A model generated the notes under the pieces. It ran no database searches. It worked only from the letters and a program-made list of their open reading frames with translations, and was not told the origin of the DNA. 64,000 nt of DNA from Bacilli bacterium (GTDB taxonomy: Bacteria > Bacillota_I > Bacilli_A > RF39 > UBA660), in assembly GCA_017536505.1 (NCBI GenBank), contig JAFXHG010000038.1:129163-193162 (forward strand), in the 5' to 3' direction. Position numbers and translations under genes: made by a program. Within the stretch, counting starts at the first letter, position 1, and every line of letters starts with the position of its first letter. Below, piece after piece: positions 1 to 16,554 of this stretch.

Positions 1-498
1 TGTCAATTCCAATAAAACTAATAAATTTGAATTTGTATATAAATTTATTTCATCATATATATTTATACTATTACTTTTAACAGTATCTATTATTAATATT
101 AATAATAAATTAGTTATTAACATATTTATAAAATTAATTATCTTATATTTTTTATCTATTTTTTTATTTATTAACGAATAAAGAAAGATAAAATTAGATA
201 TTGAAATAATAGTAACATACACAGTTAAACTTGGAAAATATAAAGCCATAAATAAACTATCAAATAAACTATCTATTATATTGAATACTATAGAATTATA
301 ATTTATTATAAGTATTATACCAAGTATTATCCAAATAGATATGAATATCCATTTATTAACCTTTTTTTCTTTCTTTACACATATTATAAATAAAATTAAA
401 ACTGCAACAGCAAGCATGCTACAAAATAAAAAAAGAGGTGAAGATACAATGATATCCATTAATATATTTATTTTTTCTACTAATGAAAAATCATTCAT
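1..498 (-). CDS. Polytopic membrane protein, partial (3' end lies beyond position 1)
   Basis: Open minus-strand frame from ATG at 496-498, preceded by GAGGTG. My translation MNDFSLVEKINILMDIIVSSPLFLF... has several hydrophobic segments. Not in the supplied track because it runs off the window. Confidence 0.5.
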   Translation of the reverse strand, partial: MNDFSLVEKINILMDIIVSSPLFLFCSMLAVAVLILFIICVKKEKKVNKWIFISIWIILGIILIINYNSIVFNIIDSLFDSLFMALYFPSLTVYVTIISISNFIFLYSLINKKIDKKYKIINFINMLITNLLLILIIDTVKSNSINIYDEINLYTNSNLLVLLELT

Positions 499-5688: not shown

Positions 5689-6618
5689 TTACTTCCTTCT
5701 ATTATCATTAAATAAATTTTTTACTTTACCTCTTACTTCACTTACTTGAATAACTTCAGGGCATATTATTAAATGTTTTGCTTCTGCATATTCAAATCGA
5801 TTATTTTCCATATCAATACTTAAATCTACAAACCCAGGTATAACATTCTTAGTTTTATCATTCGATTGATAACTAAGTGTAGGTATTCCAATCCAAAAAA
5901 TATCTCTAAGTTTTGTTTTCATCATGTGACTATGCCCTGATAAAACTATCTTCTCTCCATTTATTATTGGTTTAAACCCATCATATAATTTATGAAATAA
6001 GATTATATTATCGTTTTTTACATTTACATTACCTTGTCCATAACCAATAGGTATTATATCATATCTACTATTTTTTATTGCGGTAGAAATATCTAATCCA
6101 TTATTATGCAAAGAATGATAGTCATGATTTCCTAAAATCATAAAATTTTTTATACTTTTATCATAAGGATATTTTTTTATAAAATATTCTAGTTGAGAAT
6201 GTAAATCTTTTATATTTTTTTGTGCTGATGTATAATCACCCTCTATACTATCACCACAGTTTAAAATAATATTAATACCATTTTTGACTGCATAATCGTA
6301 TACTATATCTAATAGTTTGATATTTGAGTCTACACTACCTATATGTGTATCAGAAATAACTAAACATCTAAATAAATTAACATTTCTAGGCATTTCTATA
6401 TTTATCCTATTTCTATATATATTATTATTATCTTTTTCTATAGTATAACAAATATCAGAATTATATAAATAATTAGGTTTTAATAAATATCCATAATTTA
6501 TTATTTGCTTAATACGTATATATAATTGTTTTTCACTTAAATTTAAAATATTACATATTTCTTTCATTGATTTATTCTTACTTATTAATTCAATTATTTT
6601 TTTATTTACTTCTGTCAT
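5689..6618 (-). CDS. N-terminal HTH-like domain fused to calcineurin-like metallophosphoesterase
   Basis: Residues about 1-60 (IIELISKNKSMKEICNILNLSEKQLYIRIKQIINYGYL) look like a winged or simple HTH. They are followed by VISDTHIG, CGDSIEGD, GNHD and GHSH metallophosphoesterase motifs. Confidence 0.75.
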   Translation of the reverse strand: MTEVNKKIIELISKNKSMKEICNILNLSEKQLYIRIKQIINYGYLLKPNYLYNSDICYTIEKDNNNIYRNRINIEMPRNVNLFRCLVISDTHIGSVDSNIKLLDIVYDYAVKNGINIILNCGDSIEGDYTSAQKNIKDLHSQLEYFIKKYPYDKSIKNFMILGNHDYHSLHNNGLDISTAIKNSRYDIIPIGYGQGNVNVKNDNIILFHKLYDGFKPIINGEKIVLSGHSHMMKTKLRDIFWIGIPTLSYQSNDKTKNVIPGFVDLSIDMENNRFEYAEAKHLIICPEVIQVSEVRGKVKNLFNDNRRK

Positions 6619-6683: not shown

Positions 6684-9584
6684 CTAATTAAGTTTATCTT
6701 TTGCTGTTATTTCAATAGTAGTATTACCTGCTGTGATATTAGTTGTACCACTTAGTGTTGATATTTCAGGTAATTCTATTGTTTCTTCTGTTGGAGTTGC
6801 TAGAACATAATACATTTTTAATGGAGTTCCTAGAGCATTAAGCACAGTAAGTTTATTTTGTAATTCAGTGACTGTTGTTGCTCCTATCCAAGATTTTTGA
6901 ATTTGTAAACTATTCACATTATTATTTCTCCATCCGATTGTAGTACCTCTAACAGGTATACACAAGTTACTCATTAAAGTATCATTGGAAGATTTTAATC
7001 CTTTTTCAATAGTAACAGTTGTAAATACGTTTTCATCAAAATCAACAAACCCCTCTTCTCCTGTAAAAACCATTTTTTTAATATTTCTAATGATTTTTTG
7101 CTGAGAATAATCAATATAATCAGCAGAATCTCCAACCTTTCTTAAAGGCTCATTCAAGAATACATTAGTAGTTACCTCTTCTGTTCCATTTGTTACTTTA
7201 ACTGGTATTTTATATTTTCCATATGGTTCATATTGTGGCATTGTATCTACACTATATTCTCCTCCTACACACATTACTTCTTCTGGACTTACTATACTTT
7301 TATCAAAATCTAACCTTAAATATACTGCTCCATCCGGTTTAACATAATTTCTAAATATTGTTGAACTTTTATTTTCATAAGAAATTAAATTTTTGTTTTC
7401 ATCATACCAAGCAAAACTTGCGGCGAAATTAATTGATACAGAACTAATATCAATGCAATTTATATAATCTGATACAAATCTATCTGTTCTATCATATAAA
7501 GAACCATTTATTAATGCTTTATTATCAGTAAAATTGTCCTTGCTAAACAAATTAATTGTCTTCTCTCCAACACTCTCAACTTCAATAGGAGACTCTAATG
7601 TAGGTATTCCATTTTGTGTGCTGTTTCCATAAATTTTATAATTAACAATATCTTGATTATTAAGGGTTATGTAAGTGCCTGAGTATGTTTCTAAACCATT
7701 AGAAATTTCAACATTTCCGCTTACATCTGGTATAGTTAATATACCATCTTTATATGTGTAATTATAGACTTTTACACCATCTACTTTTACTGAAACATAA
7801 TCTAAAGCTAAATTACTAAAATCTACTGTTAATGTGGCACTTCCCATTACTTCTGTTGGCAATTCAATATTTGATAATCCCATATTAGTTTTAGGTATTG
7901 TTATTACTGGACGTACATAATGTGTTTCTATAACATCAGGTAAACCTAAAGTGGTAGAAAAAACAGTCCAAGCAAAGGAACTACCTGCTCCTCCTTCAGC
8001 ATTCGTAGATGTCCAATATTGATTTGTACTACCTAACCAAGAAGGAATTGTTGTATTAAGTCCTGCTCCACTTTTATCCCATTCCAAATCTCCAACAACT
8101 TGTGCAACTTGATATGCTGTTGGTGCTGTTACTTCTACATTTATCCATCCTGTGGTGTTATTTGCTATTGTAGTATAAACTCCGTCTGCTTTACAAGTTT
8201 CACCGCCATATTCTCCTGACAAACACCAAGTGGTCTTCGCATCAAGATTACTATCCATTATAAGCGATACTTCACCTGCACTAGTTGTTCCAGTTGTACC
8301 ATCTATTAATGTAGTTTCATCCCCATCTTCTAATACATAAAAAGTTCTATAAACCCCATCTCCTGGATCACAACTATATTTATCTCCTATTGTTATTGTT
8401 CCACTATTATCTGTATCAGTTACAAGTGTACATACATAATTTGGTATATCGATATCTGTATATGTTATTTTATAAAATTGTTGAAAATCAAAATCTAACC
8501 TAATATCATAGAAAGTTTTACTACTATTATATCCACCAGATACATATTTTATTTTTATTTTAAATTGTTTTTTCACGCCTAAAGTACATTTGTCATTACT
8601 ATCACATATTTTTTCATTTAAATCATAATCTATTAACTCATATGTTAAATTTGATGGTAATCCTGTTATATTTGCAATAGCTGCTTCTGCATTACCAATA
8701 TTAGTCACTTCAATATTAAGAATTACACTTGAATCTTTATTTGGTAAATTTATTCCAGCACTTACATTACTAACATTATATTCAGTATATGTTGTTTTAC
8801 TATCAGTAACTCCTATACTACCTTTAGATACTGTTATTACTGGGCGAACACCATGCGAATTAATAACATCATCTGCATATACACCACCTAAAAAAGCAAA
8901 ATCGTATCCTGGTCCATTATCTGTATTAATTGAATACATCCCATCAGTAGATGTCCAATAATCTCCTACCAACCATGATGGAATTTCCGTCTCATATGTG
9001 TCTGGCCAAGTTAAGTTTCCACCAGCAGCAGCTATTTGATATGCTGTTGGTGCTGTCACTTCAACATTTGTCCATCCTGTAGTGTTATTTGCTATTGTAG
9101 TATAAACTCCATCTGCTTTACAAGTTTCTCCATCATATTCTCCTGATAAACACCAAGTGGTTTTCTCATCAAGATTACTATCCATTATAAGTGATACATC
9201 TCCTGCGCTAGTTGTTCCAGTTATACCATCTATTAGTGTTGTATTATCTCCATCCTCTAGTACATAGAAAGTTCTATAAACCCCATCTCCTGGATCACAA
9301 CTATATTTATCTCCTACACTTATTGTTCCACTACCATCTGTATCATTAACTAATGTACAAAATTCCCCAAGAGAAACAATAGGTATCTCGTTTACCCCTG
9401 TTACTCTTATATCTTTTTTTATTCTTACATCAGCTATAAAGCCAGTTATATTTAAATTTGAAGAAAAAGCAGAATATCCAACACTTAATAAAAGAATAGT
9501 TAATACTATTATATACGGTATTAACTTTCCTTTGTTAGATAATATATATTCTTTAGCTTTTTCTAATTTTCTGTTTCTTTTCAT
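6684..9584 (-). CDS. Large secreted/surface protein with a SipW-type N-terminal signal, two Cys-rich EF-hand-loop modules and a long beta-rich C-terminal region
   Basis: 966 aa. N-terminus is K-rich + TM + SVGYSAFSSNLNITG. There is an internal duplication (see repeats). No sorting signal or C-terminal TM. Confidence 0.7.
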   Translation of the reverse strand: MKRNRKLEKAKEYILSNKGKLIPYIIVLTILLLSVGYSAFSSNLNITGFIADVRIKKDIRVTGVNEIPIVSLGEFCTLVNDTDGSGTISVGDKYSCDPGDGVYRTFYVLEDGDNTTLIDGITGTTSAGDVSLIMDSNLDEKTTWCLSGEYDGETCKADGVYTTIANNTTGWTNVEVTAPTAYQIAAAGGNLTWPDTYETEIPSWLVGDYWTSTDGMYSINTDNGPGYDFAFLGGVYADDVINSHGVRPVITVSKGSIGVTDSKTTYTEYNVSNVSAGINLPNKDSSVILNIEVTNIGNAEAAIANITGLPSNLTYELIDYDLNEKICDSNDKCTLGVKKQFKIKIKYVSGGYNSSKTFYDIRLDFDFQQFYKITYTDIDIPNYVCTLVTDTDNSGTITIGDKYSCDPGDGVYRTFYVLEDGDETTLIDGTTGTTSAGEVSLIMDSNLDAKTTWCLSGEYGGETCKADGVYTTIANNTTGWINVEVTAPTAYQVAQVVGDLEWDKSGAGLNTTIPSWLGSTNQYWTSTNAEGGAGSSFAWTVFSTTLGLPDVIETHYVRPVITIPKTNMGLSNIELPTEVMGSATLTVDFSNLALDYVSVKVDGVKVYNYTYKDGILTIPDVSGNVEISNGLETYSGTYITLNNQDIVNYKIYGNSTQNGIPTLESPIEVESVGEKTINLFSKDNFTDNKALINGSLYDRTDRFVSDYINCIDISSVSINFAASFAWYDENKNLISYENKSSTIFRNYVKPDGAVYLRLDFDKSIVSPEEVMCVGGEYSVDTMPQYEPYGKYKIPVKVTNGTEEVTTNVFLNEPLRKVGDSADYIDYSQQKIIRNIKKMVFTGEEGFVDFDENVFTTVTIEKGLKSSNDTLMSNLCIPVRGTTIGWRNNNVNSLQIQKSWIGATTVTELQNKLTVLNALGTPLKMYYVLATPTEETIELPEISTLSGTTNITAGNTTIEITAKDKLN
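8109..8432 (-). repeat. Copy 2 of the intragenic 324-bp (108-aa) near-identical repeat
   Basis: CTLVTDTDNSGTITIGDKYSCDPGDGVYRTFYVLEDGDETTLIDG...TTWCLSGEYGGETCKADGVYTTIANNTTGWINVEVTAPTAYQ. It lies 927 bp from copy 1. Confidence 0.9.
9036..9359 (-). repeat. Copy 1 of the intragenic 324-bp (108-aa) near-identical repeat
   Basis: CTLVNDTDGSGTISVGDKYSCDPGDGVYRTFYVLEDGDNTTLIDG...TTWCLSGEYDGETCKADGVYTTIANNTTGWTNVEVTAPTAYQ. Confidence 0.9.
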
Positions 9585-10752: not shown

Positions 10753-11877
10753 CTATCCATTTAACCATACAGTTGGAAGACCTACATATGGTATTGCAAG
10801 ATTTACGGTCCCAATTACCATTTCTTCTTCTACCACATAATTATCTTCTGTTTTATTTGCATCTCCCTTAGTATAAAAATAATAATGGCCATCTTCTTCT
10901 ATAATGTTTATAAGCCTATGTACAACTACAACCCCACTATGTTTAAATGCGATAACTTGTCCTACTTCTAGTGTATCGTATTTATCATCAATTTTTTCTA
11001 CGATTACTACATCACCTTTTTTGATTTTAGGATCCATACTACCACTAGCAATAGCCAAAGCATAATAATGAAAATATCCTGATGTGAAATATACTATAAC
11101 TACCATTAAAACAGCAGGAATAATTATAGATCCAAGATTTTTTTTCTTATAATCTCTTTCTACATCCGCATCTTTTTCTTTTTCAAAAAATTGATATACT
11201 CTAGTTAATAAAATAATTGGTAATATTAAACCTACAATCGAAGTTAAATATTCATTTAAATCCGGCACAATAGGAATTAAATATACATATAATCTTGTTA
11301 TTAATAAGTATAATATTATTGGCTTATAACCAGTTTTCTTTGTTATATAAGTAAATACTATATTACTACTTATTGCTGGAAATAAAGAAAGCGCTATAAA
11401 TATAAAAATATTATACCCAGAATCAAATTTATTATAATATATTGCTTCAGTTACATCCAAAAAAGTAAAAATTATTATAGAAATAATTAAAAGGAGTTTG
11501 TTTCCTTCTGATTTTTTTAATATCATATATCTTAATATTTCTTTTAAAATTATCGTAAGGGTTAAAGGCAAAATAAAAGTTGTTAAACCGTACCAATTAT
11601 AGTAATCACCAGTTTTAGCAAACCCTATAATAACACCTAACAAATAAATAAATACAAAATATATAAGTAAAAATATGATTACTTCAAAAAGAATATCTTT
11701 AGTATATCTATGTCTATCCTTTTCAAATCCAAAAACAAATTTAAATATAACTAAACTTAATAATAAAAATACTACAAAATTATATCCACCTAATATATTT
11801 GATACAAAACTATTTAAAAGGAAAATAAAGAAGATTATAATTTGAAACAATAGCATCTTTTTATAACTCTTTTTCAT
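10753..11877 (-). CDS. ER/archaeal-type (SipW-like) signal peptidase I fused to an N-terminal about 250-aa multi-pass membrane domain
   Basis: The C-terminal about 110 aa carry IASGSMDPKIKKGDVV (catalytic Ser box), VVVHRL and TKGDANKTED (the GDAN box is typical of SipW/Sec11-type S26B peptidases). The N-terminal 250 aa hold about 8 hydrophobic helices. Confidence 0.8.
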   Translation of the reverse strand: MKKSYKKMLLFQIIIFFIFLLNSFVSNILGGYNFVVFLLLSLVIFKFVFGFEKDRHRYTKDILFEVIIFLLIYFVFIYLLGVIIGFAKTGDYYNWYGLTTFILPLTLTIILKEILRYMILKKSEGNKLLLIISIIIFTFLDVTEAIYYNKFDSGYNIFIFIALSLFPAISSNIVFTYITKKTGYKPIILYLLITRLYVYLIPIVPDLNEYLTSIVGLILPIILLTRVYQFFEKEKDADVERDYKKKNLGSIIIPAVLMVVIVYFTSGYFHYYALAIASGSMDPKIKKGDVVIVEKIDDKYDTLEVGQVIAFKHSGVVVVHRLINIIEEDGHYYFYTKGDANKTEDNYVVEEEMVIGTVNLAIPYVGLPTVWLNG

Positions 11878-11912
11878 TGTTTTCCTCCTAAATAATCTTG
11901 TTAAAATATATT

Positions 11913-11940
11913 AAGGGGAACAATATAAATATTGCCCCTT
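11913..11940 (-). terminator. GC-rich hairpin between the major secreted-protein gene and the peptidase gene (terminator/attenuator)
   Basis: AAGGGG(AA)CAATAT-AA-ATATTGCCCCTT. The minus transcript is followed by AAUAUAUUUU. The stem is unusually G+C-rich for this DNA. Confidence 0.55.
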
Positions 11941-11961
11941 AATATAAAGTTAGTTATTTTA

Positions 11962-12842: not shown

Positions 12843-15203
12843 TTATTTCCATTTCCAATTCTTAATTTCTGGCATATCTTCACCATATTCTTTTATATAT
12901 TGTTTATGTTCAACTAACTTATCCTTACACCATTGCATTAATCTTGATCCCCTATTACCTAATTGTGGTAAATATTTTAATGCATCAATAACTAAATTAA
13001 ATCTATCTAATTTATTTTGAACTCTCATATCAAATGGTGTTGTTATAGTACCTTCTTCTTGATATCCGTGTACGTGGATATTTTCATTTTCTCTATCATA
13101 CACTAACTGATGAATTAAAGAACCATATCCATGGAATGCGAATATAATTGGTTTATCTTTAGTAAAGATTGAATTATAATCCAAATCTGTTAATCCATGT
13201 GGATGTTTTCTATTTGATTCAAGTCTCATTAAATCTACTACATTAACAAACCTTATCTTTATTTCAGGAAAATTTTCTCTTAAAATAGATGTTGCAGCAA
13301 GTGCTTCTAATGTAGGTGTATCTCCTGCACATGCCATTATTAAATCAGGTTCAGCATCTTGATCATTACTTGCCCAATCCCAGATACCAATACCATTTGT
13401 ACAATGCTTAACAGCTTGTTCCATTGTTAACCATTGGGGCCTTGGATGTTTAGAAGCAACTATTACATTTATATAATTTTTACTTCTTATACAATGATCA
13501 AAGCAAGATAATAAACAGTTTGCATCTGGTGGCAAATACATTCTAACTACATCAGACTTTTTAGTAACTAAATGATTTAAGAAACCTGGGTCTTGATGTG
13601 TATATCCATTATGATCTTGTTGCCACACATGAGATGTTAAAACATAATTTAGTGAAGCAATTTTATGTCTCCATGGGAGTTCACTTGTTACTTTTAACCA
13701 TTTAGCATGTTGACTAGTCATAGAATCTACTATTCTTATAAACGCTTCATAAGAATTAAAGAATCCATGTCGCCCTGTTAAAAGATATCCTTCAAGCATG
13801 CCTTCACAAGTATGTTCTGAAAGCATTGTATCAATTACTCTTCCATTAGGTGAAATAAATTCATCATTTGGCATGTTAGTCCCTGTAAATTGTCTATTAG
13901 TTTCTTCAAACATATATTTAAGTCTATTAGACATAGCTTCGTCAGGACCAAACACTCTAAAGTTTTTATTATCATCATTATATTTTATTATATCTCTTAC
14001 AAATTTACCAAGTTCCATCATATCTTGAACTTCCACACTACCTGGGAAATCTAAAGCAACACCATATTCTTTAAAATCAGGCATTCTTAGTTCTTTTAAA
14101 AGTTGTCCCCCATTTGCAATAGGATTTACACCCATTCTTTGATTGCCTTTTGGACACAATTCTTTTAATTCGTTTATTAATTTACCATTTTCATCAAATA
14201 ATTCTTCTGGTTTATAGCTTTTCATCCAAGATTCTAAAGCTTTTACATCTTCTTCTGTATCTATTGTTATTGGAACTTGATGTGCTCTAAAAGTACCTTC
14301 TACTTCAAGTCCATCAACAATTTTAGGTCCAGTCCATCCTTTTGGAGTTTTTAATACTATCATTGGCCATAATGGTCTATTAGTATTATTTCTTTCATTA
14401 GCATCTTTTTTTATTTCTTTGATCATTGAGATACACTTATCCAAAGCTGAAGCCATTCTTTCATGTTTTTCATAAGTATCTAAAGAATCATCAACCTCAA
14501 CAATTATTGGTGTATAACCACATCCATAAAAGAAAAATTTTAATTCTTGTTCAGATATTCTAGAAAATACTGTTGGATTTGAAATTTTATACCCATTTAA
14601 ATGCAATATAGGAAGAACCACTCCATCAGTTTTTGGATTTATAAATTTATTTAATTGCCAAGAAGTAGCTAATGGTCCTGTTTCAGCTTCCCCATCTCCC
14701 ACTACGCAAGCAACTATTAAATCAGGGTTATCTAATACCGCACCAAAAGAATGTGCTAAAGAATATCCTAATTCTCCACCTTCGTTTATAGAACCTGGAG
14801 TTTCTGGTGCTACGTGACTTGAAATTCCTCCTGGGAAAGAAAATTGTTTAAATAGCTTTCTCATTCCTTCTTCATCTTCTGTTATATTAGGATAAACTTC
14901 AGAATAGGAACCTTCTAAATAAACATTAGACACAATTGCATTACCACCATGCCCTGGTCCTGATACATAAATCATATTAAGATCATTTTCTTTTATTATT
15001 CTATTTAAATGTGTGTATATAAAATTTTGACCTGGAATTGTTCCCCAGTGCCCTACTATTTTTCTTTTAATATCACTTTTTTCAAGTGGTCTTCTAAGTA
15101 AAGGATTATCTAGTAAGTAAAGTTGTCCTACAGACAAATAATTAGTCGCCCTAAAATAGGCATCTAACTTTAAAGCCATTTCCTCTGTTAATGTTCTTTC
15201 CAC
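12843..15203 (-). CDS. xfp: Xylulose-5-phosphate/fructose-6-phosphate phosphoketolase
   Basis: 786 aa. [17 protein letters not shown] and TPP-enzyme motifs, full-length family architecture. Confidence 0.92.
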
Positions 15204-15325: not shown

Positions 15326-15634
15326 ATGATAAATATTGAAAATAATTTTAAAGAAGAAGTTTTAAATAACACAGGATTAACAGTTGTAGATTTTTGGGCA
15401 CCTTGGTGTGGACCTTGTAAAATGTTTGGTCCTATATTTGAAAACATTTCTAATACTAAAAATAATATTAAATTTTGTAAATTTAATGTAGATGAAGATA
15501 CTGAAAACATTTCTAAGCAGTTTGGTATTATGTCTATCCCTACTATAGTACTATTCAAAGATGGTAAAGAAATAAAAAGAAATATTGGGTTTTTAGATGA
15601 AGATTCTTTAAATGAATTCTTAGGTGATAATTAA
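15326..15634 (+). CDS. trxA: Thioredoxin
   Basis: WAPWCGPCK active site, 102 aa. Confidence 0.92.
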   Translation: MINIENNFKEEVLNNTGLTVVDFWAPWCGPCKMFGPIFENISNTKNNIKFCKFNVDEDTENISKQFGIMSIPTIVLFKDGKEIKRNIGFLDEDSLNEFLGDN

Positions 15635-16554
15635 TGTATGATATTATTATTGTAGGAGCTGGACCTGCCGGTATGACTGCTGCTATATATGCAAGCATAG
15701 CTAGAAAAAAAATATTACTTTTAGAAAAATCAGTATATGGTGGTCAAATAGTAACGGCAGATAAAATTAAAAATTACCCTGGATTTGATGAAATATCAGG
15801 TTATGAATATGCTACTAAATTATATAATCAATTAAAAAATTTTAATCCTGATATAAAATTTGAAGAAGTATTAGAAATTAAAAATAACGAAAATTTTAAA
15901 GAAGTTATAACAAATAAAAACAGTTATAAAACAAAATCAGTTATAATTGCTACAGGTACTAAAAATAGAAAATTAAATCTTAGTAACGAAGACAAATTAA
16001 TAGGAAAAGGGATATCATATTGTTCTACTTGTGATGGAGTTTTTTATAAAAATAAAACAGTTGCTATTACAGGCGGAGGAAATAATGCTATTGATGATGC
16101 TTTATATTTAAGTGATATAGCAAACAAAATTTATGTTATTTATAGACAAAAAGATTTTAAAATAGATTCTATTAATCTTGATAAATTAAAAGAAAAAAAC
16201 AATGTAGAATTTATATTAAATTCAAATATAGTAAATATAAATGGTAATGAAATATTAGAAAGCATAACTATAAAAGAAAATGAAACTAACAAAGAAACAG
16301 AATTGTTTATAGATGGCTTATTTATAGCTATAGGTCACATTCCTGTTTCAAGTATGTGTAAAAATTTAGTTAAAACTGATGAAAAAGGTTATATAATCGC
16401 TAATGAAGATTGCATCACTAATATTGATGGAATATTTTGTGCTGGAGATGTAAGAATTAAAGAAGTTAGACAGCTAACTACTGCTTGTAGTGATGGAACA
16501 ATTGCCGCCCTAAATGCCTTTAAGTATTTAAACAAAAAAGAAAAGAACATTTAA
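15634..16554 (+). CDS. trxB: Thioredoxin-disulfide reductase
   Basis: GAGPAGMTAAIYA FAD motif and CSTCDG redox centre. Start overlaps the trxA stop. Confidence 0.9.
   Translation: MYDIIIVGAGPAGMTAAIYASIARKKILLLEKSVYGGQIVTADKIKNYPGFDEISGYEYATKLYNQLKNFNPDIKFEEVLEIKNNENFKEVITNKNSYKTKSVIIATGTKNRKLNLSNEDKLIGKGISYCSTCDGVFYKNKTVAITGGGNNAIDDALYLSDIANKIYVIYRQKDFKIDSINLDKLKEKNNVEFILNSNIVNINGNEILESITIKENETNKETELFIDGLFIAIGHIPVSSMCKNLVKTDEKGYIIANEDCITNIDGIFCAGDVRIKEVRQLTTACSDGTIAALNAFKYLNKKEKNI

Follow-up and report, generated by a model that had tools for sequence, protein, structure and literature searches.

A SipW-type signal peptidase fused to an uncharacterised eight-helix membrane domain in a surface-fibre-like gene cassette of uncultured gut Bacilli

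Introduction

We analysed a 374-residue protein encoded in a 64,000-nucleotide stretch of DNA (the whole of this 64-kb stretch is called the window below) from an uncultured gut bacterium of low GC content within the Bacilli. The protein is a genuine fusion of a SipW/Sec11-type signal peptidase to a polytopic membrane domain, and it is encoded in a four-gene, surface-fibre-like cassette that probably builds a surface fibre. Across hundreds of lineages the two parts stay fused, the catalytic residues are retained and the genes keep their order. We are confident that this is a real SipW-type peptidase dedicated to its cassette. The fuller reading, in which the dedicated peptidase also carries an eight-helix domain with a docking or scaffold role, is one that we narrowly favour; that role, judged by itself, is put forward tentatively.

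In bacteria and archaea, TasA-like biofilm and surface fibres form under the control of dedicated SipW-type peptidases, and a question for these systems is how processing stays specific and is coupled to fibre assembly. Both the catalytic part of the present protein and the logic of its cassette are already known. The eight-helix domain is unclassified and unstudied. Its sole precedent is one preprint sentence on enzymes with ten transmembrane (TM) helices, to which it can be likened by description only. The family is large: it comprises at least 1079 clusters at 50% identity, and no fewer than 123 species-level genomes of uncultured gut Bacilli encode it.

Results

The C-terminal part is a SipW/Sec11-type catalytic domain

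The initial annotation had placed an S26B catalytic region at the protein's C-terminal end, and profile searches bear this out. NCBIfam model TIGR02228 (sigpep_I_arch) matches amino acids (aa) 250-370 with 81.2 bits, against a cut-off of 51.85. The match begins at the anchor helix and covers positions 8-131 of the 158 in the model, whose C-terminal TM is absent from the peptidase. Pfam places Peptidase_S26 at aa 253-314 and Peptidase_S24 at aa 270-336. The equivalog for Bacillus SipW, NF046067, was not reached (70 bits, cut-off 190).

The three motifs read from the sequence at the outset are present and 95-100% conserved in 101 cluster representatives of the family: SGSMDP (S280-M281), HRL (H320-R321) and GDAN (G338-D339-x-N341). 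None of S280, H320, D339 and D345 varies in 82 genome copies, and in the 101 representatives these residues are 93-98% conserved. The catalytic residues are Ser, His (not Lys) and Asp, with spacings of 40, 19 and 6 residues. In yeast Sec11 the spacings are 39, 20 and 6, and the two proteins are alike in this respect. When the full-length structural model was compared with the PDB by Foldseek, the best matches were human SEC11C and SEC11A (7p2q_A and 7p2p_A; E 2e-5 to 3e-5), and matches were confined to the peptidase domain.

Ser280 is replaced by Asn or Thr in four of the 101 representatives (P0150, P0160, P0184 and P0203), which keep the eight-TM domain. Judged from their sequences, these four may be pseudo-peptidases. 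Members that lack Ser280 recall SipA, a non-catalytic protein required in streptococcal pilus assembly.

Peptidase and eight-helix domain are one polypeptide

We considered whether the protein is an artefact, with two genes joined by a wrong start, a frameshift or mis-assembly, and regard this as extremely improbable. The frame is continuous, and a strong Shine-Dalgarno sequence (AGGAGG) lies 7 nucleotides (nt) 5' of the ATG in a window of about 26% G+C. ATG, GTG and TTG codons are absent from aa 205-257, and the nearest Met, residue 258, lies within the anchor helix; a separately translated, anchored peptidase is therefore impossible. Among species-representative genomes, 123 stretches encode a relative, and our locus counts come from 80 of them, which hold 83 copies. 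Both parts lie in one open reading frame (ORF) of 371-398 aa in 83/83 copies, and architecture and length are the same in these independent copies as well as in most of the 150 top-ranked database representatives. These data exclude an internal start and establish that the fusion described in the initial annotation is a true one.

A few database proteins with the N-domain are evident chimeras, which is the one point in favour of an artefact. Metallophosphoesterase/5'-nucleotidase or PBP transpeptidase domains come after the N-domain and an incomplete S26 domain in P0224 (812 aa) and P0143 (368 aa). We rejected both as DUF5305 fusions, because Pfam gives these unrelated domains; they are probably chimeras of metagenome assembly.

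Hydropathy predicts eight TM segments within aa 8-231, a charged loop at 232-247 (six K/R and six D/E) and a ninth TM at 248-266. The full-length AlphaFold2 model, built from an alignment of 57 sequences, has these nine helices too, followed by a small beta domain, at a mean pLDDT of 83.4. The eight N-terminal segments counted initially are thus upheld by both methods, and the total has to be corrected to nine, counting the SipW anchor. Predicted cytoplasmic segments contain 20 Lys and Arg residues versus two in the outer loops. This positive-inside bias predicts that the N terminus lies inside and the catalytic domain outside. Since the number of extra helices is even, the catalytic side stays outward as in an ordinary SipW.

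The fusion is widespread in uncultured gut bacteria

A search with aa 1-247 returned 452 clusters at 90% identity. The best 120 of these are almost all 373-377 aa long with S26/S24 Pfam domains, and copies named by their source are annotated only as 'signal peptidase I'. We also built an N-domain profile from 23 sequences and searched 1.84 billion 50%-identity representatives, of which 1079 matched at E<=1e-3; a total of 657 reached E<=1e-10. The 150 best of the 1079 are nearly all about 375-385 aa long, with the N-domain at 1-246 and the SM motif near 280, or are shorter, presumed fragments; a C-terminal hydrophobic segment is present in none of the 150.

The hosts are uncultured gut metagenome-assembled genomes of rabbit, goat, roe deer, chicken and Hadza humans, labelled Bacilli, Mycoplasma sp. 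CAG:877, Coprobacillus sp. CAG:605, Tenericutes, Erysipelotrichaceae and Candidatus Faecisoma. Two higher-GC N-domains used as queries for named or cultured hosts gave 11 matches, all metagenomic.

The eight-TM domain belongs to an unclassified family

The N-domain makes up two thirds of the protein and is an unclassified, uncharacterised family. Neither Pfam nor NCBIfam has a model that matches aa 1-247 of the window protein, and Pfam matched no family in 25 divergent N-domains. The N-domain profile found only spurious matches to MdfA (E 3-7) among PDB sequences. This agrees with the initial annotation, which had recognised no motif in this region.

Modelled alone, the N-domain forms an eight-helix bundle (pLDDT 85.3, pTM 0.83). 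Its conserved residues are G81, G85, E113, R116, N172, P202, P205, Y210 and P220. G81 and G85 lie at the outer end of TM3, and P202, P205 and Y210 lie in an outer loop. Within the membrane, the pair E113-x-x-R116 on TM4 is invariant; TM5 carries D141, and TM6 carries N172, which is 93-94% conserved. Judged from their position along the predicted helices, E113, R116 and N172 are at a similar depth in the inner leaflet.

The eight-TM domain might instead be a second enzyme or a transporter, fused to the peptidase for co-localisation. We consider this unlikely; the domain would then be a divergent Rce1/CPBP-like intramembrane protease that degrades the released signal peptides or trims subunits, or a modifier or flippase of a lipid or glycan that the fibre requires. 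The fold search offers a point in its favour. Foldseek of the lone N-domain against the PDB gave Rce1 as the top match (4cad_I, TM-score 0.47 over 265 columns), and the next match has a TM-score of 0.28. CPBP motifs lie on TM4 and TM5, and E113/R116, D141 and N172 loosely recall them. Because of this residue pattern and the weak match to Rce1, we examined the relation to CPBP proteins directly.

The direct comparison argues against membership. The Rce1 match itself has an E value of 1.4 and a probability of 0.57. A synthetic CPBP consensus retrieved 29 genuine PF02517 proteins, although it missed Rce1 in the PDB; when two N-domain profiles were aligned with these 29 proteins by hhalign, the probabilities were 0.1% and 0.3%. 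No PF02517 match was obtained with the window protein or the 25 divergent N-domains. The motifs EExxxR, FxxxH and HxxxN/D are absent, and the N-domain family has no conserved His. The spacing from E to R is +3, not the +4/+5 of EExxxR, and N172 is on TM6, not TM7. We therefore rejected membership in the CPBP/Rce1 family, and the resemblance between the predicted N-domain fold and Rce1 is an unproven lead only. No CPBP gene was found by regular expression or phmmer in the window or in 1.1 Mb of related loci.

A transporter-type internal repeat was not found either: neither a 4+4 nor a 2+2 repeat in the N-domain is significant (best hhalign probability 5.9%). TM3-strand-TM4 (aa 57-124) and TM7-strand-TM8 (aa 184-240) show weak similarity (hhalign E 0.006, probability 5.9%), and this is mirrored in the AlphaFold model, where a short strand precedes each long helix. 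The similarity, which is not significant, may be the trace of an ancient 4+4 duplication.

The peptidase lies in a conserved cassette with DUF5305 and two candidate substrates

The cassette spans 12657 to 6684 and is read entirely from the minus strand, in the order small secreted subunit (p231), peptidase, DUF5305 protein and large secreted protein (p966). The DUF5305 gene begins 3 nt past the peptidase stop codon, and the p966 gene follows it after a 1-nt gap. Pfam supports the DUF5305 assignment (PF17231, E 5.4e-18, 65.7 bits, cut-off 29). Of all ORFs in the window, p231 and p966 alone carry the motif G[FY][AS]AF[ST]xxLxI, and they flank the peptidase/DUF5305 pair.

The layout is conserved. 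A p231-like gene, in 1-4 tandem copies, lies upstream of the peptidase in 73/75 assessable loci, and DUF5305 lies directly downstream in 76/79. The initial annotation had spoken of two candidate substrates and had raised the question of whether the N-domain always keeps company with AF[ST]S-type substrates; the two candidates do flank the peptidase, and in these 73/75 loci the enzyme occurs together with AF[ST]-type substrates. A p966 homologue is present in 54/83 cassettes. The layout recurs in a distant member of higher GC, where a 199-aa protein with VAFAVLSTTLNIQG precedes the fusion and a DUF5305-like gene comes next.

Two complete cassettes (subunit, eight-TM peptidase and DUF5305) are present in each of four loci (L011, L016, L018 and L037). 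Other loci (L006, L008, L012, L027 and L045) have three or four tandem paralogues of the small subunit. Double cassettes and tandem subunit paralogues suggest a diversified surface product.

In the window, the p231 signal peptide is followed by GFAAFTSNLTIKSSATV. Signal peptides of the candidate substrates are of the ordinary Sec type. Across 88 homologues of p231, column entropy averages 1.30 bits over the h-region and 0.44 at the cleavage site, against 1.99 for the mature part; the signal peptide is thus better conserved than the mature part. This is unusual among Sec signal peptides, and such high conservation suggests specific recognition. The AF[ST]xxLxI strand after the cleavage site is also conserved in the p231 family. 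The cleavage-site motif A/AF[ST] (slash, cleavage) resembles that of TasA. The mature part has two near-invariant Cys residues and a conserved C-terminal motif, DGDF.V.FG.I.L.Y. No NCBIfam model matches the p231 family. Weak Pfam matches to Ig-like domains were obtained among 29 members (HYDIN/VesB-like Ig in 11, Cep192_D5 in nine and DUF7507 in eight; best E about 2e-3).

p966 has no match to a Pfam or NCBIfam family and possesses neither a C-terminal TM nor an LPXTG motif. It is a possible tip, adhesin or anchor component. A unit of about 110 aa is duplicated nearly identically within it, at aa ~78-190 and 395-505 (~9015-9353 and 8070-8402), with the pattern LV[NT]DTD.SGTI[ST][VI]GDKYSCDPGDGVYRTFYVLEDGD...TAPTAYQ.

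The make-up of the cassette bears on another explanation, a stronger form of an idea in the initial annotation: the eight-TM domain would be an assembly platform or channel that holds the fibre base or conducts subunits, with cleavage and polymerisation mechanically coupled, as in sortase systems or in a prepilin peptidase and its platform. The cassette has no sortase gene and, as p966 has no LPXTG or C-terminal TM, the product must be anchored by other means. The fusion is strictly conserved, the cassette encodes no other polytopic membrane protein, and the conserved outer-loop residues (G81/G85, N91-Y92 and P202-x-x-P205...Y210) share a membrane face with the catalytic domain. These points favour a platform. 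Against it, no dedicated channel serves polymerisation in the known TasA, AbpA and Tafi systems, whose subunits are exported by Sec or Tat, and the substrates here carry ordinary Sec-type signal peptides. The likeness to prepilin peptidases, exosortases and archaeosortases drawn in the initial annotation is conceptual only: general Pfam scans of the window protein and of 25 divergent N-domains, which would include these and usher families, listed none of them, their accessions not being individually checked. We judge a platform or channel to be improbable.

Other features of the cassette and its surroundings

The coordinates of all features are collected in Table 1. The 84-nt spacer between the p231 and peptidase genes contains a stem-loop with a GC core followed by a U-rich stretch. 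It was spotted by eye and by RNA folding; a terminator scan called none in the cassette, this stem-loop included. It could be a partial or leaky terminator, or an attenuator, ahead of the peptidase gene, setting a high ratio of subunit to enzyme.

Directly downstream of the cassette, 5689-6618 (minus strand) encodes a 309-aa protein with an N-terminal helix-turn-helix and a calcineurin-like metallophosphoesterase domain. This gene is probably outside the cassette, because it has no homologue in the 80 related loci. On the other side, 12843-15203 (minus strand) and 15326-16554 (plus strand) hold phosphoketolase-like (786 aa), thioredoxin-like and thioredoxin-reductase-like ORFs, as judged by eye from their translations. 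By eye, the cassette flanks look like housekeeping genes. The phosphoketolase-like gene is found again as a neighbour in L001 and L046 only; the genomic position of the cassette is therefore not fixed.

Table 1. Features of the cassette and of the peptidase (window positions unless given as aa)
Feature	Position	Strand	Basis and remarks
Peptidase gene (nine-TM, 374-aa protein)	10753..11877	-	ATG-started continuous ORF, stop codon included
N-terminal eight-TM domain, aa 1-237	11167..11877	-	Hydropathy, AlphaFold2 and conservation
Charged cytoplasmic linker, ~aa 238-248	11134..11166	-	Modelled as disordered, pLDDT <50 for aa 238-249
Ninth TM, ordinary SipW-type anchor, ~aa 249-267	11077..11133	-	Hydropathy 248-266, model helix 249-265
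Extracytoplasmic catalytic domain (predicted side), aa 268-374 and stop	10753..11076	-	Ser280/His320/Asp339/Asp345; no C-terminal TM
Helices of the N-domain	aa 3-24, 32-49, 59-84, 95-122, 127-148, 154-182, 185-200, 209-236		AlphaFold2
Outer beta-strands of the N-domain, short	aa 86-88, 203-205		AlphaFold2
p231, candidate major substrate, 231 aa	11962..12657	-	Conserved signal peptide, then GFA/AFTSNLTIKSSATV, beta-sandwich-like mature part, two conserved Cys
Stem-loop 3' of the p231 gene	11907..11946	-	-17.3 kcal/mol, z -4.2
DUF5305 protein, 387 aa	9586..10749	-	Two TM helices, aa 50-68 and 271-289; PF17231
p966, second candidate substrate, 966 aa	6684..9584	-	N-terminal signal with VGYSAFSSNLNITG; internally duplicated domain

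Discussion

We propose that the peptidase cuts its substrates near GFA/AF. Cleavage would free an N-terminal amphipathic strand to serve as the donor strand in polymerisation of the TasA/AbpA/Tafi style, and a donor-strand fibre made from p231 is plausible on sequence grounds. The eight-TM domain would be a non-catalytic membrane module for docking and scaffolding. It may bind the well-conserved signal peptide that cognate subunits carry, perhaps by way of the E113/R116/N172 cluster, and it may pack against the two TM helices of DUF5305. Peptidase and DUF5305 would then constitute a private holoenzyme resembling the eukaryotic signal peptidase complex (SPC), with processing specific to, and co-located with, fibre assembly.

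Several observations weigh against this proposal. Contact of the eight-TM domain with a signal peptide or with DUF5305 is something that we only infer, and an enzyme or a transporter would also be compatible with a buried, invariant set of Glu, Arg and Asn. In the full-length model, the linker and anchor have a pLDDT of about 50 and the pTM is 0.65; the model therefore gives the relative placement of the eight-TM and catalytic modules with little confidence. A profile of 29 p231 sequences gave one spurious match only at E<=10 in the PDB, in a copy not checked for the AbpX entries 9RHP and 9SJ2, and only one of the 29 members matched Peptidase_M73/TasA (PF12389), at E 0.094. As the substrates match neither TasA nor a PDB entry, the donor-strand fibre rests on the motif, the hints of a beta-sandwich and the gene context. 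Finally, DUF5305 also partners short peptidases such as TafD, so the eight-TM domain is not needed for the accessory (PMC11821415).

A bolder version of the proposal can be formulated, in which the eight-TM domain captures signal peptides and, together with DUF5305, couples cleavage to donor-strand polymerisation and to anchoring of the fibre in the membrane. We hold it to be rather doubtful. The protein would then be a Gram-positive, Sec-dependent counterpart of an usher or platform, and, with as little assurance, may have a common origin with the ten-TM peptidases found in AbpX loci of archaea and clostridia.

If the eight-TM domain does dock signal peptides or organise an SPC-like complex, the family would provide a tractable bacterial model of how accessory helices shape peptidase specificity. 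It would also draw attention to a surface-fibre system, so far unstudied, of abundant uncultured gut bacteria. The family offers a clear experimental question.

Comparison with known systems places these features in context. With SipW of the B. subtilis tapA-sipW-tasA operon and with Sec11 (MEROPS S26B, TIGR02228), the peptidase shares its catalytic domain, Ser-His-Asp spacing, anchor and outward active site. Like SipW, it is encoded beside its own fibre-type substrates, with a site of the A/AF[NST] form generally known from TasA. It differs from both enzymes in having eight extra TM helices before the anchor and no C-terminal TM, and from SipW in that DUF5305 and non-TasA substrates take the place of TapA and TasA as partners.

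In the eukaryotic SPC, extra TM helices around the catalytic subunit shape substrate choice. The SPC (SEC11 with SPCS1/2/3; 7P2P, 7P2Q) supplies the best structural match to the peptidase, in its catalytic subunit. Here, in contrast, the extra helices are fused in cis and have no sequence relation to those of the SPC; they may form a comparable assembly. Rce1/CPBP proteins (PF02517) resemble the N-domain as an eight-TM bundle with conserved Glu and Arg on TM4, and as its top, non-significant fold match.

Two further systems share the DUF5305 protein, and both the adjoining DUF5305 gene and the multi-TM peptidases of AbpX loci had escaped the initial annotation. In the Tat-fimbriae of Haloarcula, deletion of TafD leaves the major subunit unprocessed and fimbriae are lost (PMC11821415). 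TafG, a DUF5305 protein, is thought to assist TafD (PMC11821415, PMC12337348). As in our cassette, a dedicated signal peptidase and a DUF5305 protein are encoded in one fibre operon. TafD differs in being archaeal, with four TM helices (the N-terminal anchor included), an additional extracellular domain at its C-terminal end and Tat substrates.

The closest description of a multi-TM enzyme comes from a January 2026 preprint on AbpX of Pyrodictium. In our literature search, polytopic SipW-type enzymes were mentioned nowhere else. One sentence there, with no domain analysis, gives the AbpX-associated signal peptidase I of bacteria and archaea ten TM helices, and DUF5305 is proposed to be an accessory subunit of the signal peptidase in a eukaryotic-complex-like arrangement (10.64898/2026.01.04.697558). 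Ten TM helices are reported there versus nine predicted here, the two being compared by description only. Both peptidases are of the TIGR02228 type with many extra TM helices, and AbpX loci, in Bacillota as well as archaea, likewise encode small donor-strand subunits and a DUF5305 accessory beside the peptidase.

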